Below, in pieces: positions 1-20,000 of a stretch of 20,000 nt of DNA; position 1 is the first letter of the stretch; every line of letters starts with the position of its first letter. Source of the stretch: an uncultured virus (IMG/VR IMGVR_UViG_3300007169_000009) (Duplodnaviria > Heunggongvirae > Uroviricota > Caudoviricetes); the IMG/VR virus record IMGVR_UViG_3300007169_000009; one strand, given 5' to 3'. The notes beneath the pieces were generated by a model. The model saw only the letters and a program-made list of their open reading frames with translations. It ran no database searches and was not told the origin of the DNA. A program made the translations under genes and the position numbers.

Positions 1-79
1 GAAAAACACTGCACTCAAGAATCTTGAGAGCCCTTACAGGCGTTCGGAGATTTTCAAAACGCTTTTCCAGTGAGATCCT

Positions 80-370
80 ATGGAATGGATTATTGATCGG
101 TTGCCAACTAAGGAAGACGCCGACAGCTACGGGAACGTTGTTTGCGGCGACAGAGATTCATGGGCGGATGTGCATTGGAGTTACGTGGACTCTCGCACTG
201 CCTGGCTTGCATTCAAGCCGGCCCCAGAGCCCGCCGCCCCCACCAGCCAACCCCGCCCCCACCAGCCAACCCCGCCCCCCCCTTCACCCCTCCCGGCGCT
301 ACGCCCGAGCCAGCTGCCGCCGCTGTCACCACCCCCACCAGTCAGCCCCGCCGCATCAGGAGGTGGATAA
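80..370 (+). CDS. hypothetical phage protein (MEWIIDRLPT..DAD N-terminus) with Pro-rich, probably frameshifted tail
   Basis: ATG ORF; stop TAA overlaps next ATG (TAATG at 368-372); the tail contains a 19-bp tandem duplication and a poly-C tract. Confidence 0.6.
   Translation: MEWIIDRLPTKEDADSYGNVVCGDRDSWADVHWSYVDSRTAWLAFKPAPEPAAPTSQPRPHQPTPPPPSPLPALRPSQLPPLSPPPPVSPAASGGG
236..273 (+). repeat. 2 x 19-bp tandem repeat GCCCCCACCAGCCAACCCC, with a degenerate third copy at ~331-352
   Basis: Exact copies at 236-254 and 255-273, followed by G+C8. Confidence 0.85.
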
Positions 371-615
371 TGGCTGATCCCCGCAATGCTCCACCCACCG
401 GCTTTGTCGCCACCTGTCGCTGCGGCGTGGTCGTTGGCGCTATGGACTACATCCGCACCGATCGCCGCGAGGCTGGTCGCCTCCTTGGTCAGTGGCTTCA
501 CGATGGCTGCACCGTCGAGCCACGGTTCACTGGCACATGGAACGTCTACGTTAAACCTTGCCGCTGTGGCATGGACTACTTGCCACTGTCCAGCGAAAAG
601 GTGGATCATGACTGA
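370..615 (+). CDS. hypothetical protein, 81 aa, two CxC motifs (CRC...CRC)
   Basis: AGGAGGTGG SD directly upstream of ATG 370; coupled to neighbours. Confidence 0.7.
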   Translation: MADPRNAPPTGFVATCRCGVVVGAMDYIRTDRREAGRLLGQWLHDGCTVEPRFTGTWNVYVKPCRCGMDYLPLSSEKVDHD

Positions 616-739
616 CCGCGTGAGCATCGCGCTCGATGCCGACTCGGTTGCTGCCGTGGCCGACGACGGCACTTCATGGTGGCTTAGCGGCGATGGAACC
701 GAGTGGACCCAAATGCCCGCGTTGCCGGATCGGAAATGA
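608..739 (+). CDS. small hypothetical protein, 43 aa (AVADDGTSWW...W..LP); possibly the detached C-terminus of the 80..370 gene
   Basis: AAGGTGG SD before ATG 608; ATGA overlap with next gene. Confidence 0.55.
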   Translation: MTDRVSIALDADSVAAVADDGTSWWLSGDGTEWTQMPALPDRK

Positions 740-894
740 GTCTTCTTGATGAATGCGTTGCTGCATACAGCGCTGGTGTCGAACCCGTCAGATGGCCCAA
801 AACAGTCTTCGGGCCGGATCGCGCCGCGCTGGCGTTGCTGCCGTGCTGGCACATCTTTCCGCAAACCCCACTCTTACCAGGACACTTCTCATGA
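736..894 (+). CDS. hypothetical protein, 52 aa
   Basis: ATGA overlaps at both ends (736-739 and 891-894). Confidence 0.5.
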   Translation: MSLLDECVAAYSAGVEPVRWPKTVFGPDRAALALLPCWHIFPQTPLLPGHFS

Positions 895-1088
895 ACGAAG
901 AGGCAGCTAAGGCGATTTCTGTCGTAGAAGCAAAGAAAGAAAAAGCAAGGCTTGAGCACGAGATCGGGGCGCTTGTAAGCGCTTTTTCAGAAAAAACCGG
1001 GCTTAGCATTAAGGGCCTGGACCTGATGCCACTTGTGTCAATGGGAGACGAGACTAGGTATTATGTTAAAGTTGATGCTGAGCTGTGA
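891..1088 (+). CDS. hypothetical protein, 65 aa
   Basis: ATG coupled to upstream stop; helical, protein-like composition. Confidence 0.7.
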   Translation: MNEEAAKAISVVEAKKEKARLEHEIGALVSAFSEKTGLSIKGLDLMPLVSMGDETRYYVKVDAEL

Positions 1089-1252
1089 TGCAAAATTCAG
1101 TCTGCGAAAAAATTAAAAAGCAAAAAGCTGTTAATTTTTTCAACAACTTAATTTGCGCATTCATAGCTGCTTCGGTTTTTGCTATGATTGGCATTGAGTA
1201 CGGCAATAGCCGTCTCCCAGCCAACAGTGGCACGCAAGGGTGCGTCAAATGA
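1088..1252 (+). CDS. small membrane protein, 54 aa (MQNSVCEK...LICAFIAASVFAMIGIEYG...)
   Basis: Translated by hand; TGATG coupling upstream and ATGA downstream; one hydrophobic segment. Confidence 0.65.
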   Translation: MQNSVCEKIKKQKAVNFFNNLICAFIAASVFAMIGIEYGNSRLPANSGTQGCVK

Positions 1253-1422
1253 CAATGCTTGCGTTTACATGCGTCGCAATGAAAGCCAGCGATCCGCCAA
1301 AGCGAATTGGAATTATTGCGACCTGCAGAGAAGGCGCCATTCAGACTGCTCAAGAAATCTTCCCAAACCACGTTTTGGGAATTGTAAGTCTTGAGCCCGA
1401 ATGGACAGATGATCCAGCTTGA
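1249..1422 (+). CDS. hypothetical protein, 57 aa
   Basis: ATGA coupling; ORF track. Confidence 0.65.
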   Translation: MTMLAFTCVAMKASDPPKRIGIIATCREGAIQTAQEIFPNHVLGIVSLEPEWTDDPA

Positions 1423-1448
1423 TTCACAAACCAAGTAAATGATCAACG

Positions 1449-1628
1449 ATGATTGAACGAATCAGGGAGCAGCTTCAGCGCTGGCAACTTCGCCGGGAGC
1501 AATGGCAGTTTCACCGCTTCAGGGCCAAGCTGCTTTCTGACTTTTATCTCTACCAGTATGCCACTGGTGGCCACTACAACCTGCAATTCGTCAAGGCTTG
1601 CAGGCATGAACTGAGAAACCGTCGCTAA
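1449..1628 (+). CDS. hypothetical basic protein, 59 aa (MIERIREQLQRWQLRREQW...)
   Basis: Translated by hand; fills the gap in the + strand gene run. Confidence 0.6.
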   Translation: MIERIREQLQRWQLRREQWQFHRFRAKLLSDFYLYQYATGGHYNLQFVKACRHELRNRR

Positions 1629-1647
1629 CGCCATTCAACATCAAATC

Positions 1648-2064
1648 ATGAACTACGACGACTGGAAGCTGAGTCCACCAGAGTACCCAGCTGATTCTGA
1701 GTTTCAGGAGAAGGTAATCGACAGGAATCAGGGAGTATTTTCTTGGCAAAGATTTTGCCATTCAATGCCTCAATATTGCGTTGATGACGCAATTTGGCAA
1801 ACTTGCAAAAAAGGCCCATTCATTACGCCGATTGAAAGGCTAATTTTTTGGGCCAATCTTGCAGTGGCGAGGCTCAAGAGACTGCAAAATCCCATTCAAG
1901 TAGCTGGCTGGATGTCACTGGCATGGGTCAATTCCTCCTATGTCGATGCCTGCGTCACGGTAGAAGAGACATGGAAGGAATCTTGGTCTTTTCATGACTT
2001 AAAAGCCGTCGAAGAGGATGATGGATCTATTTCACTGTATCGTTGCAACTTTGAAAAGCCTTAA
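1648..2064 (+). CDS. hypothetical protein, 138 aa
   Basis: ORF abuts the next gene; pyrimidine/A-rich leader. Confidence 0.7.
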   Translation: MNYDDWKLSPPEYPADSEFQEKVIDRNQGVFSWQRFCHSMPQYCVDDAIWQTCKKGPFITPIERLIFWANLAVARLKRLQNPIQVAGWMSLAWVNSSYVDACVTVEETWKESWSFHDLKAVEEDDGSISLYRCNFEKP

Positions 2065-3033: not shown

Positions 3034-3086
3034 GATTAAATCTTACAGGTTCACTATCGCGCAAGGCTGAACTGGGGCAAGAGTTT

Positions 3087-3127
3087 GCGGTCGAGGCTGG
3101 CTAAATTGCCAGAATCGACCGCTTTTT
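3087..3127 (+). terminator. intrinsic terminator
   Basis: GCGGTCGA..CTGGC-loop-GCCAG..TCGACCGC stem followed by TTTTT. Confidence 0.8.
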
Positions 3128-3129
3128 AG

Positions 3130-3192
3130 TGTTACGCTTCGCCAACCTTATGGCGGGCTTCGCTTGCATACGGGGCGTTCGTATGGTACAAT
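3130..3192 (+). promoter_or_regulatory. sigma70 promoter (cassette 1) with conserved upstream box
   Basis: -35 TTGCAT 3164-3169, 17-bp spacer, extended -10 TGgTACAAT (3187-3192); box TGTTACGCTTCGCCAACCTTATGG at 3130-3153. Confidence 0.85.
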
Positions 3193-3249
3193 GGATGGCG
3201 TCGGGGATCTTGCGGGCTCGCCGGCCGCCACACTTACACCTTACAGGTT

Positions 3250-3645
3250 ATGCCAACAGCAAATCAGACCGTGCGTCAGGCAGCAGTTGCTAGGCGACAG
3301 CTTAAAAGGCTGCTTAAGCAGCTGCCAAGCTTGCGGCTCAGCATTTACAAGTTGTTAGTTGCCATCAAGAAGGATCAATGCTGGGAGCCTAGCTCTGACG
3401 CCGAAGAGCCCTACATTGACTTCACCATCGGTTGCACCTTCGACTTTGACGAAGGTTGCATTATCTGGAGCTACCAGACCGGAGACAACAGCTTCACTGG
3501 TGGAGCTTACGGGCACCCCGAATGGTTTACTACTTCACTACTTAGCCGCAGTAGCTGCATGGATCTTGCCACTGGTCTGATCTCAGAGATTGACAGTCGC
3601 ATCTGCGAGCTTGCATCCGGCCACTTTCCTTTTGCCGAATACTGA
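3250..3645 (+). CDS. hypothetical phage protein (WSYQTGDNSFTGGAY motif)
   Basis: First gene after promoter 1; motif I recall from uncharacterised phage proteins. Confidence 0.8.
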   Translation: MPTANQTVRQAAVARRQLKRLLKQLPSLRLSIYKLLVAIKKDQCWEPSSDAEEPYIDFTIGCTFDFDEGCIIWSYQTGDNSFTGGAYGHPEWFTTSLLSRSSCMDLATGLISEIDSRICELASGHFPFAEY

Positions 3646-3701
3646 GTCTGTATCTGCTGATCAGCTTTTTGCATGTTTGCAGTTTACCTGATTTTCACTC
3701 A

Positions 3702-4355
3702 ATGAAGAACTACAAGCTCACAGTCGCCGAGAATCAGCTTACTGGTGAGATTGGCGTCATTGTTTGCACTGGCCGCAAGTACCATGATCCGTGGAATGGG
3801 ACAGTTGCAGCTCACGACATTCTTGAGCATCCTGCAACTCCGCACCACGATCCATTTATTGACGAGTTTATGGCTCTTGGAGCGATGGCTGCAAGTAGAA
3901 TAGCGACGAACCATAGATCATTTTCAAGGCTAAGACCTGACAGCTTTGCCGACATTAGCGCAGACATTAGTAGACTTATCCTTGAGCGTCCCCAGCAACT
4001 ATGCCCCATTCCCTCAGGGAATAGAGTAAGGGATTCAAGAATTGTCTCTGATTTTAGAGATTGCGTGAAAGCGGGCATTAAAGAAGCTCGCTATGAGCTT
4101 GAAGAAGAAGGCGATACAATGCGCGAAATAAACGAAGAAGAGCTATCTTCTATCGTTGGCTGGATGTGCAAAGGCTACAGTCTTTATCGCGCAAGATTCA
4201 GGCGTTCGCCCGACAACGCCATCTACCTGTTTGATCTGATTCAGAAAGAAGTGGACAGCTGGCTTTCTGATAATAACTTTGAAGGCGCTGAAGCTACATT
4301 GTGCGTAGACTTTACGAACTGCTACTGCCACATTGCCGAGCATTTCTCAAAATGA
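3702..4355 (+). CDS. hypothetical protein with HDxxEH...DE putative metal-binding motif
   Basis: ATG 3702; AHDILEH...DEFMALG. Confidence 0.75.
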   Translation: MKNYKLTVAENQLTGEIGVIVCTGRKYHDPWNGTVAAHDILEHPATPHHDPFIDEFMALGAMAASRIATNHRSFSRLRPDSFADISADISRLILERPQQLCPIPSGNRVRDSRIVSDFRDCVKAGIKEARYELEEEGDTMREINEEELSSIVGWMCKGYSLYRARFRRSPDNAIYLFDLIQKEVDSWLSDNNFEGAEATLCVDFTNCYCHIAEHFSK

Positions 4356-4510
4356 AGAAACTCGTTATCGAAATCAAGGGAGATTGCACAGACTCCTTGT
4401 GCAATGCCATCAGAGAGGTTGAGCGCGTCGTTAGCGAAGGCTACACCTCTGGCTTCAATAGCAACGAAACAGATTGCTACCACTTTGACATTTCTGAGAT
4501 CAATGACTAG
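4352..4510 (+). CDS. hypothetical protein, 52 aa
   Basis: ATGA coupling. Confidence 0.7.
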   Translation: MKKLVIEIKGDCTDSLCNAIREVERVVSEGYTSGFNSNETDCYHFDISEIND

Positions 4511-4766
4511 CTCAACAGAAGACAGCCGCTTGTTTATTGCCGTGTTTCCTACTGGCATCGGCTATGCCGATATGTCAAAGGAGGAGCATGGAGATTACAA
4601 GCGTGTTGCATTTTTGTCTTATCGAACTTTGCAGTTTGAGCCGGAAAAAAATGCAAACAGAGAGCTTATTGAGCAGGCCAGGCAGCACGCAGTTACAATC
4701 CAGGCGATGCGCGGGCAAGAGTTCCGTGTTTCAGCCTCCGGTCAAACCGTGCTTCTTGGAAGTTGA
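4503..4766 (+). CDS. hypothetical protein, 87 aa
   Basis: ATG overlapping upstream gene end; FPTGIGYAD..EEHGDYK motif. Confidence 0.75.
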   Translation: MTSSTEDSRLFIAVFPTGIGYADMSKEEHGDYKRVAFLSYRTLQFEPEKNANRELIEQARQHAVTIQAMRGQEFRVSASGQTVLLGS

Positions 4767-4799
4767 CTCCCTTGACTTTCCAGTTTATCTTTTTTGACA

Positions 4800-5210
4800 A
4801 TGAATCCATCAGTTAAGCAGCTTGCTGAAACCCTACTTTGGTCGGAGTACGATCGTGACGGAGACGACGAGCCACTTGATTCAAAGTTCAGCCCTGAAGA
4901 CATTGACAGTAAATCTCTGTCGGAACTTCATCAGAGATTTCAAAAGTTTCTCTCAGAAGCAGAGGCTGAAATTACCAAGCTCAAGGGTGATGGTTGGAGT
5001 TTCGTTGAAGACTTTTACACTGGATCAGACAGAAGTGGCTATCAGCTTGAGCATGATTACATTATGACTGTCAATGGTCATGGCTGCGGCTTTTGGGAGA
5101 CAAGTGATTGGTTGCCAGAAGTCGGAGACATCTTGACAAAACTTGCAAAAGAAGAAAAGCAGATTAGCTGCTGGGTCAAAGATGAAACAGTTTACATTGA
5201 GTTCGGTTAA
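4800..5210 (+). CDS. acidic hypothetical phage protein (HD..T.NGHG.GFW motif)
   Basis: ATG 4800; HDYIMTVNGHGCGFW resembles a widespread uncharacterised phage family. Confidence 0.8.
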   Translation: MNPSVKQLAETLLWSEYDRDGDDEPLDSKFSPEDIDSKSLSELHQRFQKFLSEAEAEITKLKGDGWSFVEDFYTGSDRSGYQLEHDYIMTVNGHGCGFWETSDWLPEVGDILTKLAKEEKQISCWVKDETVYIEFG

Positions 5211-5504
5211 ATGAAAGAGTCGGCTATTCAGATTTATCGACTTAGCGAAGTCGGGCGATCAATGACATGGAGAGAGTATCAAGCTTTTGGCTATGGTCTG
5301 ACACAATGGCAAGATTACGGGCTTTCCAGGTCTTTTGGGCCGATTGCGCACTGGAGCCCAAATCTTACGCTTGGCGAGATTGAAGATGCCTGCCCATTTG
5401 CAGGCAGAACAATGGCAAAGATTTTTGCCGAAAGGTTGGGGCTTCCAGATTTAGCCATCACGGATGGGCCTCCCAGATTCTACAGGCAAATCGACCGATC
5501 TTAA
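5211..5504 (+). CDS. hypothetical protein, 97 aa
   Basis: ATG directly after upstream TAA. Confidence 0.7.
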   Translation: MKESAIQIYRLSEVGRSMTWREYQAFGYGLTQWQDYGLSRSFGPIAHWSPNLTLGEIEDACPFAGRTMAKIFAERLGLPDLAITDGPPRFYRQIDRS

Positions 5505-5508
5505 AAAA

Positions 5509-5712
5509 ATGAACCGACCCCTCGGCTATCTGCAACAGCAAATGTTTGATTTTTGCAAGCGCCACCCTGGACATCACTATGTCCCAGCTGACGCTGAGAG
5601 TGTAAGGATTGCTCGATCACTTGAAAAGCGCGGCCTACTGCACATCACAGATTGCGGGATGGTCGATGCTCGCGGCAGGTCTGCCCTGATGGCCTCCTAC
5701 GTTGAACCCTGA
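5509..5712 (+). CDS. small protein, 67 aa, possible winged-helix fold
   Basis: ATG 5509; RIARSLEKRGLLHI resembles a wHTH recognition helix/wing. Confidence 0.65.
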   Translation: MNRPLGYLQQQMFDFCKRHPGHHYVPADAESVRIARSLEKRGLLHITDCGMVDARGRSALMASYVEP

Positions 5713-5829
5713 GCATCGCCAGCGCCAGCCAGCGACCTCCCTGCGCCACCTTGGCCCATCGAAGTGACACTCTGGGGCCTCCAGCCTCAGAGCCCCCTCC
5801 CTGGCGATTTCTGCCTTCAAGTTAAAGCC

Positions 5830-6324
5830 ATGCCAAAGACTCGCAACTCTTTACAACTTACAAGAAACGAGACAATCGAAAGGCTACAGGCTGCCAAAAG
5901 TTACCTTGGAAACAAGGATAGACTGGCATTTATGCGAACAGGTAGCATCTACCTTCCGTGCAACTATCGCCCTGAAGACGAGCAAAGCTGGTACTCTGCG
6001 CCGAGGCTTTCTGAGTTAGAGCTTTGCTCCCTTTCAGAATGCACTATGGCCTTCGCCGGCTACAGCTGGAAGGCTGATTCAAGGTTCATGGCATCTAACG
6101 CAATCGAGTTTACAGACTGGGCATTCCGCAAAGGCGCTTCAATAGGTGAGGCAGTAGTCATCATTTTTTATCCTTGGAAGGAGAAGCGCAAAACCACAAA
6201 AACTGCAACTTTGTGGCTTGGGACTTGGCATCACGCCCCGCTCATTGCATGGATTGGTGGCATGGTCGCAGATCAAAATGTAGCAGTTGACGCTCTCCCT
6301 AAGTACCTCGATCTGATTCACTAA
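5830..6324 (+). CDS. hypothetical protein, 164 aa
   Basis: GTTAAAGCC-ATG leader; TAATG coupling to the next gene. Confidence 0.7.
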   Translation: MPKTRNSLQLTRNETIERLQAAKSYLGNKDRLAFMRTGSIYLPCNYRPEDEQSWYSAPRLSELELCSLSECTMAFAGYSWKADSRFMASNAIEFTDWAFRKGASIGEAVVIIFYPWKEKRKTTKTATLWLGTWHHAPLIAWIGGMVADQNVAVDALPKYLDLIH

Positions 6325-6923
6325 TGCAAAACATCCTTCTTGAAGTTAAAAGCGTTCGGCGCTGCGACAATGGCCACACTTGCAACTTGATAGCTAACGG
6401 CAGAAAGGTTGCATTTATTGCCCCTGGCATCTTTGAGTGGACAAACTATTCAAAAAAGGTTGATGTGCTGACTTGGTTTGCGGCCAGGGCAGGCTCAAAG
6501 GCAAAGCAGCCGCAACCTACAGAGCTGAAAGATGGTTGGGAGTCTGAGATTCCAGATCACAGGCTAGAAGACGCAAAGCATGAGGCGACGGAAACGGCCT
6601 TGCATCAATGGGTCATCTTGCATTTTAAGGCATACGAGATTACTCAAAGATGCAAGTTTACAGTTATGAGCCTTGGCAGCAAAGGGGAGATTCTTGACTG
6701 GGGCATTTCTCCTGACAGTCTGCATCCCACCAGGCTAGGTGATAACTGGGAGTCTCAGCTTTCTGGTTGCGACAGCGGTTCCGGCAAAGCTAAAGGTAGT
6801 GGCTACAGTCGCTCACGCTCTTCTTCGTCAACTTTGTTGAACAAACTTTCCATGCCAGAAATAGTCAGGCTTTTAGAGCAAAAGCCAAAGCCAGCTCCTC
6901 GGCGGAAACGCGCTAAGGTTTAA
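6324..6923 (+). CDS. hypothetical protein, 199 aa, Ser/Gly-rich segment and basic tail
   Basis: ORF track; coupling. Confidence 0.75.
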   Translation: MQNILLEVKSVRRCDNGHTCNLIANGRKVAFIAPGIFEWTNYSKKVDVLTWFAARAGSKAKQPQPTELKDGWESEIPDHRLEDAKHEATETALHQWVILHFKAYEITQRCKFTVMSLGSKGEILDWGISPDSLHPTRLGDNWESQLSGCDSGSGKAKGSGYSRSRSSSSTLLNKLSMPEIVRLLEQKPKPAPRRKRAKV

Positions 6924-6939
6924 CGGTTGCCTCTTTGCA

Positions 6940-7536
6940 ATGAAAGTCTTGGTTGCTTGCGAGTTTAGCGGCAGAGTTCGGGATGCTTTTCTGAAGAAGG
7001 GCCATGAAGCGATTTCATGCGACATTTTGCCGACAGAGGTTCCAGGGCCGCATTATCAAGGCGATGTGGCAGACATTTTGCATACTGAAAGTTGGGATCT
7101 TATTATTGCGCATCCTCCATGCACCTATCTTGCCAAAAGTGGTGTAAGGTGGCTTGGCGAAGAAGGAAGTGATAGATGGCAGAAAATGGTTGAAGCAGCA
7201 GCTTTTTTCAATTTATTCCTTGCCCACCCATGCAAAAAAGTTTGCATTGAAAACCCTGTGATGCACCGTTACGCAAAATCAAAGCTGCTGATTCCACATT
7301 ACAGCCAAAAAACTCAACCCTATTTCCATGGTCATCCAGAAAGAAAAGCCACTTGTCTTTGGTTAAAGGGGCTTCCGCTTCTTCAAGCAACAGGAAATGT
7401 ATCGCTGCTGATGATTGGACAGTCTGAAGGTTCAAAAAACAAAAGTCACTGGGAGCCGCCTGGGAGAGAAAGGCAAAAGAATAGAAGTCGCACCTTCCAT
7501 GGAATAGCTAAAGCAATGGCCGATCAGTGGGGGTAA
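6940..7536 (+). CDS. phage DNA (cytosine-5)-methyltransferase-like protein
   Basis: VLVACEFSG, SCD, GDV, catalytic AHPPC (motif IV), IENPV (motif VI), K.TCLWL, C-terminal RS.TF.GIA.AMA.QWG. Confidence 0.8.
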   Translation: MKVLVACEFSGRVRDAFLKKGHEAISCDILPTEVPGPHYQGDVADILHTESWDLIIAHPPCTYLAKSGVRWLGEEGSDRWQKMVEAAAFFNLFLAHPCKKVCIENPVMHRYAKSKLLIPHYSQKTQPYFHGHPERKATCLWLKGLPLLQATGNVSLLMIGQSEGSKNKSHWEPPGRERQKNRSRTFHGIAKAMADQWG

Positions 7537-8457: not shown

Positions 8458-8458
8458 C

Positions 8459-12689: not shown

Positions 12690-12696
12690 TCACAGC

Positions 12697-12728: not shown

Positions 12729-12749
12729 CTATCCACCTGCCTTTTAACA

Positions 12750-12905
12750 GTGAAAACGATCCACGTCACAGTTAAGCTTTGCATCAGCGATCATGCGGAT
12801 GCCTACGAAGTGGTAGAAGACTGTAGTTACAGTTTTGAGCATGGAGACATTCTCGAAACCGAGATTGTCAACGTTTGTGATGAAAACAATATGAACGTTT
12901 TTTGA
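12750..12905 (+). CDS. small acidic protein, 51 aa (MKTIHVTVKLCISD...)
   Basis: Translated by hand from GTG 12750; fills the gap after hairpin A. Confidence 0.6.
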   Translation: MKTIHVTVKLCISDHADAYEVVEDCSYSFEHGDILETEIVNVCDENNMNVF

Positions 12906-12935
12906 TTCTTCAACCATCAATCCTGCTAGCCTGCT

Positions 12936-13259
12936 ATGACAAGCTCTGAATCCTGGAGAAAGCTGTTTACAGTTTCTACTGAGCTTTCCTACTTTCTGGA
13001 TCATTCTTTGGCTGAAATGGAAGACCTTAAACAGTGGGGCCGCGTATCTGACAGGATCTATCGTCACTACTGTTTCCTGTGGTTGTGGAGCGCATGGCGC
13101 CAAGATTACAGGCACGATCAGTTTTATCGCAAGTTTGGGTATTTGCGCTATTGGAAGCGCATTGAAAGGGTGAAGGCCGTAGTTGAGAGGATCAGGCCGC
13201 TGAGGGTCCAGGTTCCGAGCGAACACGCTCCATTCTCACTTGGCACGTTGAACCGATGA
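12936..13259 (+). CDS. hypothetical protein, 107 aa, Trp/Arg/Tyr-rich
   Basis: ORF track; ATGA coupling downstream. Confidence 0.7.
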   Translation: MTSSESWRKLFTVSTELSYFLDHSLAEMEDLKQWGRVSDRIYRHYCFLWLWSAWRQDYRHDQFYRKFGYLRYWKRIERVKAVVERIRPLRVQVPSEHAPFSLGTLNR

Positions 13260-13432
13260 CGCAGCGAACTTGGAAGCCTGCTGGCAAGGTTGATCTTGTC
13301 GGATTGGAGGATCGACTTTCCTCCGACAAGAAGGTGGTTACAGCCTGGTTCCCAGATCGCGGAGCTTGCTACATGATTGTTGATAGCAAGTCATCTTACA
13401 GCCGCAAGCACAAGCCAAAGGTTATTTACTAA
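13256..13432 (+). CDS. hypothetical protein, 58 aa (MTQRTWKPAGKV...)
   Basis: Translated by hand; coupled at both ends (ATGA, TAATG). Confidence 0.65.
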   Translation: MTQRTWKPAGKVDLVGLEDRLSSDKKVVTAWFPDRGACYMIVDSKSSYSRKHKPKVIY

Positions 13433-13776
13433 TGAACACTTCCGACAAGCGCACACTCCTTCTTATGGGAAGGAGCTTCCAGCATTATGCAGCGCACCTC
13501 AAGACTTGCGGGACTCCAGAGGCCAAGATCGAACTTTCCGAAGTCAGCACAATGCTTCTTCTCTTAGACGAGGAACTTCACAGCCTGGAGACTGCAGAAC
13601 AGGCTCAGGAAGAAGACACCTCAAGATGGGATGTTGTAGCCTTGGATGATGAAGGCAACTGGAAAACCCTGCTCGCAAACGTGAGCTACCACGATGCGGA
13701 CAACAAGGTTGATCGTTACACCGATCAGTTTCCGCACGCAATCATTGATGTTATTCCCCACAACTCCAATGCCTGA
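13432..13776 (+). CDS. hypothetical protein, 114 aa
   Basis: TAATG coupling. Confidence 0.75.
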   Translation: MNTSDKRTLLLMGRSFQHYAAHLKTCGTPEAKIELSEVSTMLLLLDEELHSLETAEQAQEEDTSRWDVVALDDEGNWKTLLANVSYHDADNKVDRYTDQFPHAIIDVIPHNSNA

Positions 13777-14224
13777 AATCTGCATCTTTGATCCCAGCTC
13801 AAAGTATGGGAATGGTATTTACTCCTTCATGGTTCCGGGCTCTAACTCCGGGGTCCTGGTCTGCGAGTTCGGAGGTGAAACCCTGGAGGAGCTGAGGTCG
13901 CAGGGCAAAGTTTCACCAGAGGCCTTCCTGTGCCCCTGGGAGGAGGCTGAAGCTCACTGCCTGGGTCTTGCCCGCCAAAGGTACTGCAGAGGGCCTGAGA
14001 GGGTTTCCCGCGAACGTTGGTGGGAGCTGCTTGAAGCCATGCCCCCTGCGCGTTGGAGGTCACTCCCTGGTGGCGAAATCTTCATGGTTGCAGAGCCCAT
14101 TGCATCCGACCTTTACAGATTTGGAGTTCGCATTGGCGAAGAATACTTCTCCATTGTTGAAGACTGCGACATTGAAGACAGCAGATTGATTGATCTTTGC
14201 AAAGCTGAGGTGCCTGGCCAATGA
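13769..14224 (+). CDS. DUF1419-like protein
   Basis: ERWWELLEAMPPARW...EIFMVAEP...FGVRIGEEYF matches the pattern I recall for DUF1419. Confidence 0.7.
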   Translation: MPEICIFDPSSKYGNGIYSFMVPGSNSGVLVCEFGGETLEELRSQGKVSPEAFLCPWEEAEAHCLGLARQRYCRGPERVSRERWWELLEAMPPARWRSLPGGEIFMVAEPIASDLYRFGVRIGEEYFSIVEDCDIEDSRLIDLCKAEVPGQ

Positions 14225-14490
14225 TTGCTGAAGACTACCTGCTTTACGTTGAAGAAGATAGCGCAGACTTCACACGTCGCACTATTGCTCGCGGGATTCT
14301 TTGGGCAGACCAAAGTTGCAGGATTAGCGGCACCTTGAGTCTTGCAATCCGCAGGTCTGGTGCTGCAGGTGCAGAGACGCTAGTTTGCCATCTTATTGCT
14401 TCTGGCTTGACAACACAGGCTGAAGTTCCCAGGTTCTTGAATAAGAACAGGGAGGCAATCTTGCAGCTTCTTGAGGAAGCAAAAGCCTAG
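14221..14490 (+). CDS. hypothetical protein, 89 aa
   Basis: ATGA coupling. Confidence 0.7.
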   Translation: MIAEDYLLYVEEDSADFTRRTIARGILWADQSCRISGTLSLAIRRSGAAGAETLVCHLIASGLTTQAEVPRFLNKNREAILQLLEEAKA

Positions 14491-14523
14491 CTACAGTTTA
14501 ATCGCAAACCTCGCTTTCTACCA

Positions 14524-14952
14524 ATGAGCTTTCTGAATCTTACAGTTGTCAGCGATGATGGCTCGTACTTCTCGGCCACCAGCGCATACCTTGTTGATAC
14601 AGCTACGTTCAGCGAGGAAGACCTTGAGGATTTCAACGATGGATCTGACAGCGACCGGGCGGAGATTGCAGCTGCAAACGGAATCCCGCTATCAGAAGCG
14701 TTGAGCAATAAAGGAATGAAGTTCGTAAGCTCACTGGTTATCTACTCTGGTGATCTTTACGATGAAGATGCTCCAGAGTATTGCTACTACATTCCTTGTA
14801 TTACTGGCAACCGCTACATTGTTGATTGCTTGATTGTCGATAGATTTGGCAGGTTGCACCCTAAATTTCAACATGGGGTGCCAGTTGCAGTTCACACGCT
14901 GACTCCTGTTGGAGACAACACGATGATGCCATTGCCAGAGGTTGAAGGCTAA
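14524..14952 (+). CDS. acidic hypothetical protein, 142 aa
   Basis: ORF track; ends in the heptamer run of cassette 4. Confidence 0.75.
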   Translation: MSFLNLTVVSDDGSYFSATSAYLVDTATFSEEDLEDFNDGSDSDRAEIAAANGIPLSEALSNKGMKFVSSLVIYSGDLYDEDAPEYCYYIPCITGNRYIVDCLIVDRFGRLHPKFQHGVPVAVHTLTPVGDNTMMPLPEVEG

Positions 14953-15007
14953 AGGTTAAAGGCCAAAGGTTCACTATCGGGCAAGTTGCGGGGTCGCGCA
15001 GAGTTTG

Positions 15008-15044
15008 GGGCTGTCGGGCGGTGATCTTACCGCCCTGGCGGCCC
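15008..15044 (+). terminator. long GC-rich hairpin in the terminator position of cassette 4
   Basis: GGGCTGTC-GGGCGGT...ACCGCCC-T-GGCGGCCC; weak U-tract (TTAGCTTATT). Confidence 0.55.
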
Positions 15045-15053
15045 TTAGCTTAT

Positions 15054-15115
15054 TGTTAAGGATTCCTTACCTTATGGGGAATCGGCTACTTTACGGGTCG
15101 CTTGTGTGGTATAAT
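15054..15115 (+). promoter_or_regulatory. extended -10 sigma70 promoter (cassette 4) with conserved upstream box
   Basis: TGgTATAAT (-10 at 15110-15115); box TGTTAAGGATTCCTTACCTTATGG at 15054-15077. Confidence 0.8.
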
Positions 15116-15171
15116 GGGATGGCTGGGAAAGTTGTGGCTTGCCCGGCGGTTCATCTTACAGGTTAAAGGTT

Positions 15172-15420
15172 ATGGCTATTTACTTTGCGCAAGCGAACCT
15201 AGACGTTGCGTTTAGCAGAAACAAGCGCAAAGTGCGCAGGTTCGCCAAGCGCCACCTCCCGTTTGGGGACTTGCACGTGAGGGTTGGAACCTGCACTTGG
15301 CAGGTTTTTGCATCAAAAGACAACTTTATTGACCAGTTTGGCTATTCAATGATCTACGACCTGGATCAAAGGTTAGTTTTTCGGCCAGACCTTTCTGTAG
15401 TTCGTACCATGCGCTTCTAA
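15172..15420 (+). CDS. hypothetical protein, 82 aa
   Basis: ATG after the cassette 4 heptamer leader. Confidence 0.7.
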   Translation: MAIYFAQANLDVAFSRNKRKVRRFAKRHLPFGDLHVRVGTCTWQVFASKDNFIDQFGYSMIYDLDQRLVFRPDLSVVRTMRF

Positions 15421-15422
15421 TC

Positions 15423-15461
15423 TTGAAGTTTGCAGGAGTTCCCGAAACCTGCAATGTAAAC
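15423..15461 (+). repeat. conserved intergenic hairpin, copy B (39-bp direct repeat)
   Basis: TTGAAGTTTGCAGGAGTTCCCGAAACCTGCAATGTAAAC. Confidence 0.85.
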
Positions 15462-15477
15462 TTTGCTTTTTAATGCT

Positions 15478-15705
15478 ATGGCAGTCCACTCTCAATCAGC
15501 CTACAGCCTGCAGTTTCTGGTAACACTGCCAGGAGGTTCAACGCAGTGGGTGACGCACTGCCAGACAAGTTCAGAGAGTGAGGCGTGGGATCTTCTCTCG
15601 TTGTTCGAGAGGGCTTACAGCTCAAAGCGTTGGAGGTGGATTCTCCAAGCGCAAGACTCACAGTTCAGTCATGTGAGGCCTGACAATACGCCTACAGTTT
15701 GCTGA
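15478..15705 (+). CDS. hypothetical protein, 75 aa, flanked by 39-bp direct repeats
   Basis: ATG 15478. Confidence 0.65.
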   Translation: MAVHSQSAYSLQFLVTLPGGSTQWVTHCQTSSESEAWDLLSLFERAYSSKRWRWILQAQDSQFSHVRPDNTPTVC

Positions 15706-15715
15706 TAGGCATAGA

Positions 15716-15754
15716 TTGAAGTTTGCAAGAGTTCCTGAAACCTGCAATGTAAAC
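15716..15754 (+). repeat. conserved intergenic hairpin, copy C (39-bp direct repeat)
   Basis: TTGAAGTTTGCAAGAGTTCCTGAAACCTGCAATGTAAAC; 2 mismatches to copy B. Confidence 0.85.
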
Positions 15755-15769
15755 CCTGACCTAAAAGCC

Positions 15770-16174
15770 ATGACGCTAGCAAATGCTCTTCAAAGTTGCA
15801 CCACAAACCTTGAGTGGCGCAGTTCGTCATTGTGGGCTACACCGCACCCGAACGATCTTTATAGCAGCGAGATAATAACTTTTGCCGCAGCCGGGCGAAC
15901 GGAAGTCTGCAGTTTTCACATTAGCAGAATGAAGTTGATACTTTGTAGGAAGACTTGGTGCAGCTGGCAAGAGACCCCTGCTGTTACATACTACAGCATG
16001 GGAGAGTTCACGGAGCCAATCGCAAGCTCACTGGCTTCGCTTGAGGGGCAAGCAAGCAAGATAAAAGAATACGCAGATTACATTATCAATGGATTCAGGA
16101 AATACGGCAACCTTGGCCATTGTCCATCTTTCGAGATTATTGATGATGTAGACGAGAACTTCAATCCTATCTGA
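15770..16174 (+). CDS. hypothetical protein, 134 aa
   Basis: AAAGCC-ATG start after hairpin C. Confidence 0.7.
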   Translation: MTLANALQSCTTNLEWRSSSLWATPHPNDLYSSEIITFAAAGRTEVCSFHISRMKLILCRKTWCSWQETPAVTYYSMGEFTEPIASSLASLEGQASKIKEYADYIINGFRKYGNLGHCPSFEIIDDVDENFNPI

Positions 16175-16203
16175 AGGTTTAATCACACATTGCTTTTTAA
16201 GCT

Positions 16204-16569
16204 ATGACTACCACGCTGGAAACTTCAACTTACGCGCTCCCTATCACAAGGGAGCAGTTTCAACAGTTCTTCGGCTGCGAGCCGCAGGATGTACGGGCAG
16301 AGCTTAAAGCCTGCGGGCCGTGGCACATACCTCACACCCTGAAGGCTCCGGCCATCAGGCGACACTGGGAGGGTGAAGGCTCTTTGAGACACGTTGCGGC
16401 AATGACCTTCTACGGAAGGCGCAGTCTTTACAAGTTGAGCCAGGACGGTTACTGGCTGGAAGGCCGGTGCAAGATTGAGGGAAAAGAGGTGTCTGCTTAC
16501 ACCTCTGACATCATGGTAGAGGTTGAGGGAAGCCTCTACACGGTCGAAGTTATCAGCGTGAGGTCTTGA
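16204..16569 (+). CDS. hypothetical protein, 121 aa
   Basis: ORF track. Confidence 0.75.
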   Translation: MTTTLETSTYALPITREQFQQFFGCEPQDVRAELKACGPWHIPHTLKAPAIRRHWEGEGSLRHVAAMTFYGRRSLYKLSQDGYWLEGRCKIEGKEVSAYTSDIMVEVEGSLYTVEVISVRS

Positions 16570-16570
16570 A

Positions 16571-16774
16571 GTGAAGTTTGAAGATTTCAGCTCCCTGCCT
16601 TCTTTCAGGCAGGTGAGGTTTGCAGGCCAAAGGGTGACCGTCGAGAGGACGGCAGCGAGCCCAACGGGGTTTGTTGTTACAGGCTGGGAGCAAGGGCTTC
16701 CGGTTGCAAGGAGGCCCGTTCCAGCTTCAGTTGTCAGAAAGATGCTGAGGCTTTATCCTCACACCTTGAACTAA
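16571..16774 (+). CDS. hypothetical protein, 67 aa
   Basis: GTG start 1 nt after upstream stop; TAATG coupling. Confidence 0.65.
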   Translation: MKFEDFSSLPSFRQVRFAGQRVTVERTAASPTGFVVTGWEQGLPVARRPVPASVVRKMLRLYPHTLN

Positions 16775-17097
16775 TGGAGTCTCCTCCTCTTTCCAAGGTC
16801 CTTGCTGAAAGCGAAGACTCAAAGCTTCTAGCTTCAAAGCTGAAGTTTTTTCCTCACGTTGCAGTGTCAACTGCAACGCTTGCAGGTCACTCTTCACTCT
16901 ATGTAAGAGTGAGCCTTGATCATAGAGATCAGTGGGTAAATGGTATCTACTTTAATAGTAGGTATTCGATCTTTACCATCAGGGATGGAAAGATTGAACA
17001 GGTAGCGAGGTACGGCCTCGCAAAGTTCCGCAAGTCAAAGATTAAAAGCCTTGACGATGTGGCTTCCAAGTTAAAGAAATGGTTTGACGGTCATTGA
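16774..17097 (+). CDS. hypothetical protein, 107 aa (SLD....W.NGI..NSRY motif)
   Basis: TAATG coupling. Confidence 0.75.
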   Translation: MESPPLSKVLAESEDSKLLASKLKFFPHVAVSTATLAGHSSLYVRVSLDHRDQWVNGIYFNSRYSIFTIRDGKIEQVARYGLAKFRKSKIKSLDDVASKLKKWFDGH

Positions 17098-17099
17098 AG

Positions 17100-17435
17100 A
17101 TGGATTTCAAAGAGTTCATTGATTGGTGTCTGGATCTTATGACAGCAATCGTGCTGGACATAGGTGACATCTTGATTGAGTCGATTGATCCCTATTGCAG
17201 GTTTTCTCCTGCGTGGTGGGTTGCATCTTGCGTCGGAGGATGGGAGATTGCAACATGCGAGTTCTTCAGGTTCAAGGCTGCGGCCTGGTATCAAAGTATG
17301 AGGAAGTTCAAAGGTAAGAGGTACTACCGTAGGCGCAAGATTGCGTGGATGACTTATTGCTTCTTCTTTGATAAGGAGCAAGAGTTTGCAGAGAGCTTTG
17401 CTGAACTTGGCTGGGTACGCCAGGATCTCGAATAG
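17100..17435 (+). CDS. hypothetical protein, 111 aa
   Basis: ATG 2 nt after upstream stop. Confidence 0.65.
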   Translation: MDFKEFIDWCLDLMTAIVLDIGDILIESIDPYCRFSPAWWVASCVGGWEIATCEFFRFKAAAWYQSMRKFKGKRYYRRRKIAWMTYCFFFDKEQEFAESFAELGWVRQDLE

Positions 17436-17438
17436 TAC

Positions 17439-17480
17439 ACCTTCAACCTTCAGTCTTCAATCTTCAACCTTCAACCTTCA
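17439..17480 (+). repeat. 6 x 7-bp tandem repeat (ACCTTCA/GTCTTCA/ATCTTCA)
   Basis: Read directly; fills the leader of the 17488 gene. Confidence 0.85.
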
Positions 17481-17487
17481 ATTAACA

Positions 17488-17820
17488 ATGATCAAGATTT
17501 TCGGCAAGAAGTTCGCGGGTTCCAACAGGGAAGCTGTTTCGTCGTTGTTCCAGGAGGATGGAACGGTCATTGGATTTTACAGGAGGCACAAGAGGAGTAT
17601 CAGGTTCTTTGATCTGAACCTAAATCCTATTGCCTTTTGTAACCAGCATGGGGTGGTGGGCAATGCTTACAGGTTAAAGCCTGATGGTGAAACTTATTAC
17701 CAGGGAGGTCTCCCAGAAAATCATGTACTTTACTCTAAGGAGATTGGATTGAGGGCGATGATCGAGGAGGTCGAGGGTTTGGCCGTGGGACGTGACAGGA
17801 AGGGACTGTACTTTATGTGA
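17488..17820 (+). CDS. hypothetical protein, 110 aa
   Basis: ATG 17488. Confidence 0.75.
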   Translation: MIKIFGKKFAGSNREAVSSLFQEDGTVIGFYRRHKRSIRFFDLNLNPIAFCNQHGVVGNAYRLKPDGETYYQGGLPENHVLYSKEIGLRAMIEEVEGLAVGRDRKGLYFM

Positions 17821-17865
17821 ATAAAGTAGTTCAATCCTATTACCAATCTTATCACTTTAGAAGCC

Positions 17866-18054
17866 ATGGCTCAGTATTTTGAGATTGAAACTTACAGCAG
17901 GGACTTTGGATGGAGCACTAACCCAGATTTTCTGGGAAGGTTAAAGGATGTAGATGACAACTTATTTTCTTCAAGGGAGGAGGCTGATGAAGCAGTGAGA
18001 AGTCTTGTGGAAGCTGGTTTCCCTGAGGGCAGCTTAAGGGTTATTGAATGTTAA
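17866..18054 (+). CDS. hypothetical protein, 62 aa (F.SREEA.EA motif)
   Basis: ORF track. Confidence 0.75.
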   Translation: MAQYFEIETYSRDFGWSTNPDFLGRLKDVDDNLFSSREEADEAVRSLVEAGFPEGSLRVIEC

Positions 18055-18083
18055 ACGTTGAATAACTAAATAGTGTCTCTTGT

Positions 18084-18113
18084 AGGCTGGTGGTTACTCC
18101 ACTAGCCTTTTTT
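18084..18113 (+). terminator. intrinsic terminator closing the small-gene region
   Basis: AGGCTGGTGG-TTACT-CCACTAGCCT followed by a T run. Confidence 0.85.
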
Positions 18114-18157
18114 ATTGTTTGATGGAGGTTACAGGTTAGGGATTAAATGATAAAGGG

Positions 18158-18168
18158 TGTGCTAGTGT
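18158..18168 (+). promoter_or_regulatory. possible extended -10 promoter for the 18192 gene
   Basis: TGTGcTAGTGT, same TGTG-n-TAnnnT layout as cassettes 3 and 4. Confidence 0.4.
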
Positions 18169-18191
18169 GGGGACGAAGTTAATGTCTGTCG

Positions 18192-18977
18192 ATGATGGAT
18201 CGAACGAATTTTGATGATCTCCATGATGAAGGTAAAAGAATTGAAGATGAACTAAATGGTTTTGATTTTACTTTGAATGATGATGATGATAGTATTGATG
18301 ATCTTGATTCTTCTAGTTTGAACGAATACGGTGAAGTTGAAGATGATGAAATAGTAGATACTGATGATGTATCTATGGGAAATGTTGAAGAACAAAACCC
18401 TATTACTCACACTACCCAAAGTTCACCCTTCTCACTACAAACTCACACTACTAACCCTCTCCCTAAACTTAAGTCCTCGTGGCTTAAAAGATCGTATCTT
18501 GCTCCTAATGAAACTGATAAAGAGTTTGAACTCTTCAAAATCTTCTGCAGGAATCCAGGGGGGAGGTCAATGGATTATATCTCTAGGCTATCGCACATAC
18601 AACCATCCGCACTAAACAGGATTGCAAAGAAGAACAACTGGAAGCGTAGATCATCTGACTACGATACTGCAGAACTTGCAGCAAAAGTACAACAGGCTGA
18701 AAATTCAAGACACGATGAGCATGTTCGTAAGTTAGACAGGTATCGTGAGGAGCAAGAAGCTTTAGGTCAACAGATTACATCAAATGCTGCACGTATAGCG
18801 CTTCTTGCAAACTCTACACTTGCAAAACTTCTAGACCAAGAAGCTGTCTTGGGGATTAGGGATCTACCTGCAATGTTGAATGCAGCAGCCAAGTTAGCAG
18901 AGGTTGGGAAGAACCTTCAAAGCTCTGCACTTGGAGTTGACAACTTGCTTGCTGCTCTTGAAGAGGGTGAAGATTGA
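18192..18977 (+). CDS. putative terminase small subunit-like HTH protein with long acidic N-terminus
   Basis: ET.K.F..F..F.....RS...HTH...NW..R...YD followed by coiled coil, a pattern seen in putative phage TerS proteins. Confidence 0.6.
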   Translation: MMDRTNFDDLHDEGKRIEDELNGFDFTLNDDDDSIDDLDSSSLNEYGEVEDDEIVDTDDVSMGNVEEQNPITHTTQSSPFSLQTHTTNPLPKLKSSWLKRSYLAPNETDKEFELFKIFCRNPGGRSMDYISRLSHIQPSALNRIAKKNNWKRRSSDYDTAELAAKVQQAENSRHDEHVRKLDRYREEQEALGQQITSNAARIALLANSTLAKLLDQEAVLGIRDLPAMLNAAAKLAEVGKNLQSSALGVDNLLAALEEGED

Positions 18978-19168
18978 ACCCTCAGACATGGCTGTTCCCT
19001 CCCTGGTGGGGCTGTTCACAGGGGCCAACGGCCTCCCGGCGGGCCACTCCGTGGAGGTGACAGTGAAGGTGAATAGAGAGAACGTCAAAACAGCCCAGTC
19101 ATACCAAGGAGTTTCAAGGATGTAGGTTCGCAATCGAGTCTTGTCGATTTCAAAGGCTGCTGCGATGC

Positions 19169-19708
19169 GTGGTAGGGTTTACTGGGGTGGTACTTCCACC
19201 AAACACCTTGCTACGACTGGATTCTGTGGAAAAACCTGTGGAAAACGCCAATTTGGGGGTTTTTGAGCAAAGTTTGGATCCTTCATCTTTGATTTTCCAT
19301 GATGATGAAGAGAGCATGTACGCCTTTCTTTTTAAGAAAGGGATCGAAGCTGTGGTGTTTCAGGTTGCAACCAAAACGTTACAGCACAAGGATCTTACGA
19401 TTTTAATGATCTACATTATTCATGCAAGTTGGAGAAATGGACGTTGCAGATTGACCACCGCAAGGGTTGCAGAAATGATGGGACATAAAATAGAGACCAT
19501 CTATCCGTCAGTTAAAAGGCTGAAAAAAGCGCGCTTACTTGTTCCAATTAAAGATTCAAAGACTGGCGAAAAGCTTCATTTAATCAATCCTTTCTTGCTA
19601 AAGGCTGGATCTGGAAGGGTCAGAGGAGCAATGATTAAAGCATTCAATGATGCACTTCGGAACAATGGCAATCCAGTTTTGACCACAAATGAAGACTTTG
19701 ATGGCTGA
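19169..19708 (+). CDS. RepL-like winged-helix replication/maintenance protein; true start probably TTG 19274 or ATG 19316
   Basis: LTTARVAEMMGHKIETIYPSVKRLKKARLL (HTH) and LINPFLLKAG wing, resembling the RepL Y.INP....G motif. Confidence 0.65.
   Translation: MVGFTGVVLPPNTLLRLDSVEKPVENANLGVFEQSLDPSSLIFHDDEESMYAFLFKKGIEAVVFQVATKTLQHKDLTILMIYIIHASWRNGRCRLTTARVAEMMGHKIETIYPSVKRLKKARLLVPIKDSKTGEKLHLINPFLLKAGSGRVRGAMIKAFNDALRNNGNPVLTTNEDFDG
19225..19245 (-). promoter_or_regulatory. two tandem DnaA boxes (TTTTCCACA)
   Basis: TGTGGAAAA at 19225-19233 and 19237-19245. Confidence 0.65.
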
Positions 19709-19725
19709 GAGTCGCAGGCCGTGGC

Positions 19726-20000
19726 CATTCATCTTCCCTGGTGGACGCTGCAGTTTTGGCCATTCACCATGGGCCATTCACATTAAGCCATTCACTTTAT
19801 AGGTTGTAGTTTATGGGTTGTAGCTTGGAGACTGTGGGTTGCAAGTTGCGACATTCACATTCACGCATTCACATTGGGCCATTCACATTGAAGCATTCAC
19901 ATTGAAGGTTTTATGTTAAAGATTACAGGTTAAAGGCGAATGCAAAAGGCGGGATCATAGAGATTGCAGGTTGCAGGTTAAATGCAACAGGTTGCAGGCT
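19726..20000 (+). repeat. degenerate 7-bp-register tandem array (CATTCAC and nTTRMAG units), running off the window end
   Basis: CATTCAC at 19761, 19775, 19789, 19852, 19866, 19880, 19894, all in 7-bp phase and interleaved with GTTGTAG/ATTGAAG/GTTAAAG/ATTACAG/GTTGCAG. Confidence 0.85.

Follow-up and report, generated by a model that had tools for sequence, protein, structure and literature searches.

We describe here a degenerate heptamer, NYTRHAS, that recurs on one strand of the final 20 kb of the 76.8-kb virus contig G000 (IMG/VR record IMGVR_UViG_3300007169_000009); this stretch of 20,000 nucleotides is referred to below as the window. The word is real, regional, graded and conserved in a clade of phages: it occupies a domain with sharp borders around a tandem heptamer array that follows the probable gene of the small terminase subunit (TerS), its excess inside genes declines with the distance from terS, it is present in relatives, and in one distant lineage the words in the genes have switched together with the array unit. 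Repeats of this kind are already known and are still unexplained.

The consensus of 296 array units is N (G/C), Y (75% T), T (91%), R (96%), H, A (92%), S (91%), a pattern that covers 96 of 16,384 heptamers. All seven runs of such units listed in the first-pass annotation of the window were recovered, three of them before GTTCACT (3035, 10842 and 14941) and four before ATG (3233, 7708, 11055 and 15155), although in the run that was read as five units (7708–7742) only three fit the strict unit. Runs of at least two strict units occur 12 times on the + strand, against a mean of 2.2 and a maximum of 6 in 200 order-3 Markov sequences, and runs of at least three occur 4 times against 0.03. TTACAG, estimated by eye at 25–30 copies on the + strand, was counted 29 times there and not once on the – strand; the accompanying figure of about 5 copies expected by chance was too low, as an order-2 Markov model gives 10.1. 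The absence of its complement CTGTAA is genuine but not significant, because coding alone predicts few copies: under a synonymous-codon shuffle 1.6 are expected in genes, and 94 of 500 shuffles had none. Under the same kind of shuffle the 52 curated genes of the window should hold 9.4 ± 2.8 copies of TTACAG and hold 18, a number reached by 1 of 500 shuffles, and a further 11 copies lie within 2.8 kb of non-coding window DNA. TTGCAG (26 in window genes against 13.9) and TTGAAG (26 against 15.5) are in excess on both strands, their reverse complements CTGCAA and CTTCAA being found 16 times each against 9.2 and 9.6. The proposal of an oriented, non-random word therefore holds: the excess is not lost under codon-preserving shuffles, the runs are kept in relatives, and in-gene copies are present in all three frames.

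Two further claims had to be given up. The signal was described as genome-wide, but in the other 56.8 kb of the contig TTACAG is split 16/12 between the + and – strands, and the bias is limited to a domain of 10–17 kb that reaches from the first early promoter to just beyond the array. The runs were also said to stand in place of a Shine–Dalgarno (SD) sequence. Since SD-like words precede just 7 of 52 starts, the module starts that lack one are not special; a unit lies within 19 nt of 9 of the 52 starts, and the in-gene excess is equal at starts, middles and ends.

To follow the dispersed copies, the pattern TT[AG][ACT]A[GC] was counted in the 34 automatically called genes of the early region, which hold 89 copies against 58.5 expected (z 4.7), and then in six genomes of the heptamer lineage (G000, G002, G004, G005, G007 and G008; G001 and G003 were omitted for their short domains). 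Genes of the domain exceed the synonymous null in all six (z 3.7–7.8), whereas genes outside it range from z –2.2 to 1.1. Under a stricter null that keeps both the amino acids and the codon-junction dinucleotides, the pooled domain genes hold 320 copies against 231 (z 7.6) and the outside genes 162 against 162 (z 0.0). The pooled excess is flat along genes (1.64–1.78x in every gene part), appears in frames 0, 1 and 2 (1.3x, 1.7x and 2.06x, respectively), and falls from 1.87x within 3 kb of terS to 1.13x at 12–15 kb, where the far bins rest mainly on two genomes. The excess is thus DNA-positional and not translational. It is equal in genes common to at least three genomes (1.71x) and in singletons (1.87x), and a relic of genes born from the array was rejected on this ground. 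In-gene pairs are too frequent at 7 bp (8 against 2.5; 1/1000) and at multiples of 7 (28 against 15.9; 4/1000), with no excess at 10 bp (2 against 2.4) or 11 bp (1 against 2.3).

The borders are sharp in each genome, as the strand bias starts near the first promoter module and stops at an element made of a G-run, a C-run and AAATTTTTT (an A-tract). Just outside the domain the gene for a dNMP kinase gives z –1.2, and the portal gene has no excess. Past the terminator that closes the early region, terS (z 3.0 over 8 orthologues) and the next gene, encoding a winged-helix protein (z 3.2), are still enriched, while genes beyond the A-tract element are not, so the excess is one-sided about the array. 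All domain genes lie on the + strand, and transcription direction and genome strand therefore coincide there; outside the domain neither + nor – genes are enriched on their sense strand, and + genes have a weak excess on the antisense strand (z about 3).

The distant lineage is represented by G006, whose array consists of 5-bp units (TTACA/ATACA/TTGCA). Its early genes are enriched in TTACAA (z 4.5) and TCACAA (z 3.4) and not in TTRHAS (z –0.2), although TTACAG alone gives z 2.9.

The window ends inside the array, and its continuation was read from relatives. Searches with TerS gave 32 loci, of which 29 were examined after the removal of three duplicates; 19 of them, several being near-duplicates, extend at least 1.4 kb downstream of terS. 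In strain L034, with a terS 95% identical, two TCACTATC boxes and a further 9 units follow, and in seven relatives the longest in-register 7-bp runs comprise 12–37 units, against 4–7 on the opposite strand. All 19 of the longer loci carry 3–11 copies of CCATTCA and 17 carry runs of at least three strict units, the other two (L056 and L057) having a 5-bp array. The gene order in relatives is terS, the winged-helix gene, the CCATTCA block, the array with TCACTATC boxes, a module-type promoter, a gene for a protein of ~200 aa, and the A-tract element. The array always lies between terS and the gene of the large subunit (terL), and both unit and position are kept across phages whose TerS proteins are 50–60% identical. 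The A-tract element, a candidate packaging start or genome end judged from its sequence and place, was found 2.4–3.4 kb after terS in L005, L007–L010, L045, L053, L054 and L057 (repeated several times in L057), and less than 1 kb before terL in G006; in G000 it falls in the part that the contig lacks. CCATTCA is clustered upstream of the first module as well as at the array, and so brackets the domain: 3–5 copies lie within 2.6 kb upstream of that module in 7 of 7 genomes against 0.16–0.36 expected, a comparison in which the interval was picked after the data were seen, one copy per genome may fall in a conserved K-G-P-F peptide, and the module position in G003 is approximate. An HNH-like gene (named by inspection) lies within the repeat block of G007 (L054:11913–12314).

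Of four sequencing runs, X3 (12.9 against 6–9), X10 (39.7 against 14–23) and X5 (50.7 against mostly 4–13) have a higher contig depth at terS and the winged-helix gene, and X1 does not; the values are depths added up over contigs, and strains that occur together confound them. The raised depth at 17000–20000 of the window, which takes in the array as well, could reflect terminal redundancy, an amplified sub-genome or sharing between strains. A long terminal repeat spanning the whole early region was rejected, as contig depth in X1, X3 and X10 does not differ between the early genes and either terL or the structural genes.

From these results, a hypothesis may be put forward to which we give about an even chance: the array, the promoter-flanking runs and the dispersed copies would form a carpet of double-stranded DNA sites for a helix-turn-helix protein of the phage, which would nucleate on the array beside the predicted packaging start. 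Slippage would create and renew the 7-bp register and weak selection would hold the regional density; as such selection would act on total density, single sites would be free to turn over. The reader, presumably encoded at the locus itself, would use the weaker dispersed sites beyond the array, the resulting protein–DNA complex would mark the genome-end domain for headful packaging, and the runs flanking promoters would let it turn early transcription down too. By analogy, the word most likely has its role at the packaging start, because T7 has heptamers beside its terminal repeats and because Jerseyvirus and Dhillonvirus, the nearest characterised groups by large terminase subunit (TerL), are reported to be headful/pac packagers (PMC10783031, PMC9022532). 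A more far-reaching form of the hypothesis is offered only tentatively, as a possibility on the unlikely side: the word would be a graded, one-sided protein-coating signal for a genome-end domain of 15–20 kb, along which a winged-helix or TerS polymer would spread from the array over early genes and promoters, and the period (7 or 5 bp) would be a lineage code that changes with the reader.

Three proteins are candidates for the reader: TerS, the RepL-like winged-helix protein and the ~200-aa protein. The probable TerS of the window is 18–26% identical to the annotated TerS of S-CBS2, S-CRES1-3 and CL131, and it is the best conserved of the three. A structure model of the winged-helix protein matched folds of MarR/ArsR/TubR type in Foldseek (prob ~1, E 1e-3 to 1e-2). 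Its score against Pfam RepL is 17.5 bits, below the cut-off of 20.3; 4 of 12 members of its alignment match RepL (PF05732; best E 0.001), and its Atlas similarity to HTH_36/RepL clusters is 0.96–0.97. The ~200-aa protein is conserved, belongs to no known family, and is encoded after the array behind its own early-type promoter (L009:12662–13264, L010:12485–13093, L054:12966–13589). It lies outside the window and was modelled from G005 (pLDDT 68); the C-terminal part of the model is weakly winged-helix-like, with winged-helix domains at Z 3–4 only. Foldseek gave no match for this model in the PDB; there is a single uncharacterised viral homologue, and sequence searches gave matches at chance level, none of its 22 library relatives being named. 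The ~200-aa protein is only weakly similar to its G006 counterpart, with an hhalign probability of 3%; the corresponding value for the winged-helix protein is 19%.

Several results weigh against the carpet of binding sites. Two of the candidate readers track the unit poorly because they diverge where the unit is kept: the winged-helix protein is only 24–26% identical in G002 and G008, both of which have the same heptamer unit, and the ~200-aa protein also diverges between genomes. The switch from 7 to 5 bp is a single event, and within the 7-bp lineage the words of a genome's own array fit its genes no better than those of other genomes. Single copies in genes are not visibly guarded: between close strains 84 of 99 are retained (0.85) against 0.86 for control patterns, and between distant genomes 354 of 591 (0.60) against 0.50 ± 0.11, a value reached by 65 of 360 permuted patterns. 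A slight excess is also seen in terL (z 2.4), outside the domain. Domain genes keep a self-similarity at lag 7 after masking of the motif (z 3.9, against 0.4 outside), which a local 7-bp misalignment process could produce. Known cases of pac recognition involve far less than 15 kb of DNA, and TerL identities of 35–38% are a weak guide to the packaging mode.

Much of this would be expected if the word were a neutral by-product, that is, if regional 7-bp slippage or misalignment expanded arrays and copied array-like words into nearby genes, with nothing reading them. Of the alternatives this one survives best, and we still consider it unlikely. It agrees with the drift of unit sequences along the arrays of relatives, with the inverted run at 17439, and with two observations that, too, tell against a phage reader: of the 15 viral contigs found to hold perfect triple GGTTRCA arrays, 14 are unrelated to this clade, and heptamers are reported as the commonest long repeats of prokaryotes and ascribed to polymerase slippage (PMC4679880, PMC4692102). 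Slippage had been raised in the first-pass annotation, and it does account for the 7-bp register, as 7-nt indels between strains at 17438 and 18144 attest. It leaves unexplained why a degenerate unit is conserved, why the array keeps its place between terS and terL and why conserved genes, in which 7-bp slips would shift the frame, carry an excess, and it needs an extra assumption for the sharp borders and the one-sided gradient. A DNA-binding protein would fit these.

It is distinctly improbable that the word acts in RNA, with early transcripts showing it to an RNA-binding protein or nuclease as a translation enhancer, decay timer or sponge. Within the domain it is always on the sense strand, a run immediately precedes the opening ATG of each module, in many cases within the loop of a leader hairpin, and an RNA role has been proposed for the TAACTGA repeats of Beggiatoaceae (PMC4679880); in the Atlas, the ~200-aa protein leads to T4 RegA at 0.76, below the bar of 0.9. 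Against this, the excess does not vary along genes, some runs lie 120–170 nt ahead of the –10 box, the word is at its densest in non-coding DNA past the terminator, and the ~200-aa gene has an early-type promoter without excess (z –0.8). The leader hairpins predicted in all four modules do not stand out clearly in stability from shuffled sequences (z –0.01 to –1.27), and known RNA families were rejected, as Rfam gave no match at E ≤ 1.

A secondary replication origin is more doubtful still. In that case a RepL-like protein would bind CCATTCA as iterons, the array with AT-rich stretches would serve for unwinding and priming, and the dispersed copies would be priming or loading sites. The RepL/HTH_36-like gene does adjoin the repeats, and G002 and G008 have AT-rich repeats behind the array, but the RepL score is below the cut-off, a separate initiator–helicase pair (named by inspection) is encoded at 37.0–39.3 kb of the genome, and the promoter runs and the 15-kb gradient are left unexplained. 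Several unrelated viruses (L071, L076 and L085) have an unannotated, origin-like layout in which GGTTACA runs face TGTAACC runs just past a gene end, which would favour an origin.

Sites or decoys for a host regulator such as RpaB are very nearly dismissed: TTACA is the core common to both lineages and also of the HLR1 half-site, but HLR1, defined in PMC6525291 as two (G/T)TTACA(T/A)(T/A) 10 bp apart with 2 nt between them, has no match on the + strand at up to two mismatches in 6 of 6 domains, the spacing counts given above rejected both 10-bp pairs and 11-bp pho-type spacing, and the base after TTACA is G or C in this word.

The proposed carpet of binding sites would be set in an early region whose features are listed in Table 1.

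Table 1 Features of the window around the heptamer word; promoter elements are predicted from a sigma70-type consensus.
Feature	Position	Strand	Details
Upstream CCATTCA x5 cluster	1337, 1631, 1758, 1816, 1892 (1337..1898)	+	just outside the left edge of the domain
Module 1	3035..3252	+	heptamer run; TCACTATC box 3051; TGTTAC dyad-like site 3130; –35 TTGCAT 3164; extended –10 TG-G-TACAAT 3187; leader hairpin; heptamer run; ATG 3250
Early region	3250..18054	+	~40 small, mostly unannotated genes with single and paired heptamers on the sense strand
Module 2	7537..7745	+	no TCACTATC box; TGTTAC-N5-GCTAACTT 7606; –35 TTGACG 7640; –10 TACAAT 7663; degenerate heptamer run 7708–7742; ATG 7743
Module 3	10842..11081	+	four-unit run that overlaps the preceding gene at its end; TCACTATC 10872; TGTTAA 10954; extended –10 TATAAT 11010; hairpin; three-unit run; ATG 11079
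Module 4	14941..15174	+	four-unit run; TCACTATC 14971; TGTTAA 15054; extended –10 TATAAT 15110; hairpin; two-unit run; ATG 15172
Inverted six-unit run	17439..17481	–	GTTGAAG on –, directly before ATG 17488; 7-nt insertion in one strain
Predicted intrinsic terminator	18084..18108	+	pattern match; closes the early region before terS
Probable TerS, candidate reader	18192..18977	+	phrog_6299, E 1.7e-4
Winged-helix protein, RepL/HTH_36-like, candidate reader	19316..19708	+	structure model pLDDT 85; alternative start at 19169
Block of CCATTCA/CATTCAC repeats	19725..19903	+	partly 14-bp spacing
Start of long heptamer array	19903..20000	+	contig ends inside the array

Four modules of ~230 bp and one layout separate ~40 small genes, all on the + strand, and module 1 forms the left edge of the heptamer domain. 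The order within a module is heptamer run, TCACTATC box, TGTTA(C/A) site, –35, –10, leader hairpin, heptamer run and ATG; the runs at module edges have 2–4 units, the –10 box is extended in three of the four, and the leader hairpins begin with GGG(G/A)A. Modules 3 and 4 are 75% identical over 134 nt. None of the four starts has an SD-like word, whereas the G006 modules carry GGAG. The TGTTA(C/A) site lies 55–56 nt upstream of the –10 box in the window, and a GTTA site stands 55–57 nt before it in 16 of 22 rows of a promoter census. In its full form, TGTTAC-N5-GCTAAC, a perfect palindrome in L007, this dyad-like site looks like an operator or activator site for a dimeric regulator. A search for the promoter module elsewhere returned 52 matches, 14 from genomes already examined and 38 without module or homologues. 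Single early genes have been lost or replaced in strains, with joints beside start codons (11087–11423, 15481–16208, 15754–16190, 10261–10585 and 17822–18085); none of 13 listed joints in contigs from four runs joins one module to another, and one exchanges the gene immediately downstream of module 3. A short intergenic hairpin whose 11-nt loop ends in GAAA is present in two copies 95% identical and a variant (15423–15461, 15716–15754 and 12697–12735), with a similar one before terS in G005; it has no match in Rfam and folds at z –0.3 to –1.9.

TerL of G000, encoded at 1347–2750 of the window, is closest to that of the Synechococcus phages KBS-S-2A and S-H1 (38%), followed by Jerseyvirus (37%) and Dhillonvirus (35%), and the sequencing runs that contain the stretch come mostly from freshwater, estuary and aquaculture samples. 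Given the likeness of TerL and TerS to cyanophage proteins and these sample types, G000 is probably a siphovirus of picocyanobacteria, likely with a freshwater cyanobacterial host. The contig has no terminal overlap; its portal, capsid, initiator, helicase and sigma labels were given by inspection of gene products, and 7 of 39 window proteins scanned had PHROG matches. A blastn search with the part of the window from 14 to 20 kb against 50,697 phage records gave no match, and the runs were not found around terS in S-CBS2 and S-CRES1.

Outside the early domain two other compositional features were seen. Six-base palindromes (GCATGC, GCGCGC, GAGCTC, CTCGAG, ATGCAT, GGGCCC and CCGCGG) are strongly depleted in the genes of six genomes, as expected from restriction avoidance. 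The octamer GCTGGTGG, the Chi octamer of E. coli, is frequent and mostly on the + strand, with 12/6 copies outside and 1/1 inside the domain in G000, 12/1 in G006 and 14/2 over the whole G003 contig; the bias is weaker in G002, G004, G005, G007 and G008, and sub-words of the octamer head the strict codon null in outside genes. A Chi-like word in the host may be behind this.

Oriented repeats near phage ends, as in T7, and before bacterial starts have long been seen without a known reader, and this clade offers a testable case, with a sharp domain, a distance gradient, a natural switch between 7 and 5 bp and three candidate readers beside the array. If the more far-reaching form of the hypothesis is true, phage chromosomes would have a new level of organisation, a lattice at domain scale in coding sequence that ties packaging or entry to early shut-off, and if the carpet is real, phages could shape synonymous sites across 10–15 kb of genes for a signal at the DNA level; a neutral word would instead be the record of a 7-bp mutational process that is regional and strand-specific.

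A search limited to open-licence papers found none on these phage repeats and none describing the heptamer repeats of T7. Compared with known systems, bacterial heptamer repeats (TAACTGA in Beggiatoaceae and cyanobacteria) are likewise tandem 7-nt units, with 2–6 copies before starts without an SD, occasional long arrays and length variation, according to PMC4679880 and PMC4692102, and the phage arrays share with the heptamer repeats of prokaryotes the tandem 7-nt units with indels of unit length. The bacterial repeats are essentially intergenic and replicon-wide, whereas the phage unit is degenerate, limited to one domain and one strand, and written into genes with a distance gradient. PeSL (promoter-early stem-loop) cassettes of T4-type phages (PMC2839356) are likewise repeated modules of a sigma70 promoter between variable ORFan clusters, with a hairpin that in the present modules is a predicted one. 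The present modules differ from these in having no SD, an extra TCACTATC box, the TGTTAC-N5-GCTAAC site 55–57 nt before the –10 box and heptamer runs, in showing no recombination between modules among the joints above, and in belonging to a phage that is not T4-like. Stoperators of cluster A mycobacteriophages, which are 13 bp long and bound by the immunity repressor, are well-conserved single sites, longer than the phage word, a short degenerate tandem unit without conservation at the level of sites. Like it, stoperators are asymmetric sites oriented with transcription and numerous in each genome, and the repeats of cluster O and Microbacterium phages are also longer single sites (PMC4351075 and, for the latter comparison, PMC7302621).

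As models of binding, two systems come nearer. According to PMC9499535, the heptads of pSM19035 parS are bound by omega, and contiguous heptads nucleate a multimeric complex that controls promoters; the phage array likewise has four or more contiguous heptads, the number set for parS, all of them direct. In the end complexes of phi29 p6 (PMC4974454), a periodic degenerate signal nucleates a multimeric protein–DNA complex that also controls promoters. The candidate readers here are (winged) helix-turn-helix proteins, unlike p6 and omega, a ribbon-helix-helix ParB that has a ParA ATPase as its partner; among the proteins looked at, neither a ribbon-helix-helix nor a p6-like one was identified. 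In T7, 11 matches to NYTRHAS lie at 161–340, the 180 bp next to the left terminal repeat: CCTAAAG and variants (GTTACAG, CCTACAC, CTTAAAG and TTTAAAC) fit the pattern on the same strand, near the terminase genes and the genome end, a likeness that may be due to chance over rotations and strands. These are presumably the heptamer repeats beside the terminal repeats that are named SRL and SRR. The T7 copies are mostly 13 bp apart in a block of ~200 bp, whereas the present arrays have a 7-bp register and up to 37 units, with further copies dispersed through 10–15 kb of genes. By analogy, the phage repeats would work most like the end repeats of T7 and, as a binding model, like the pSM19035 heptads or the nucleation of phi29 p6.

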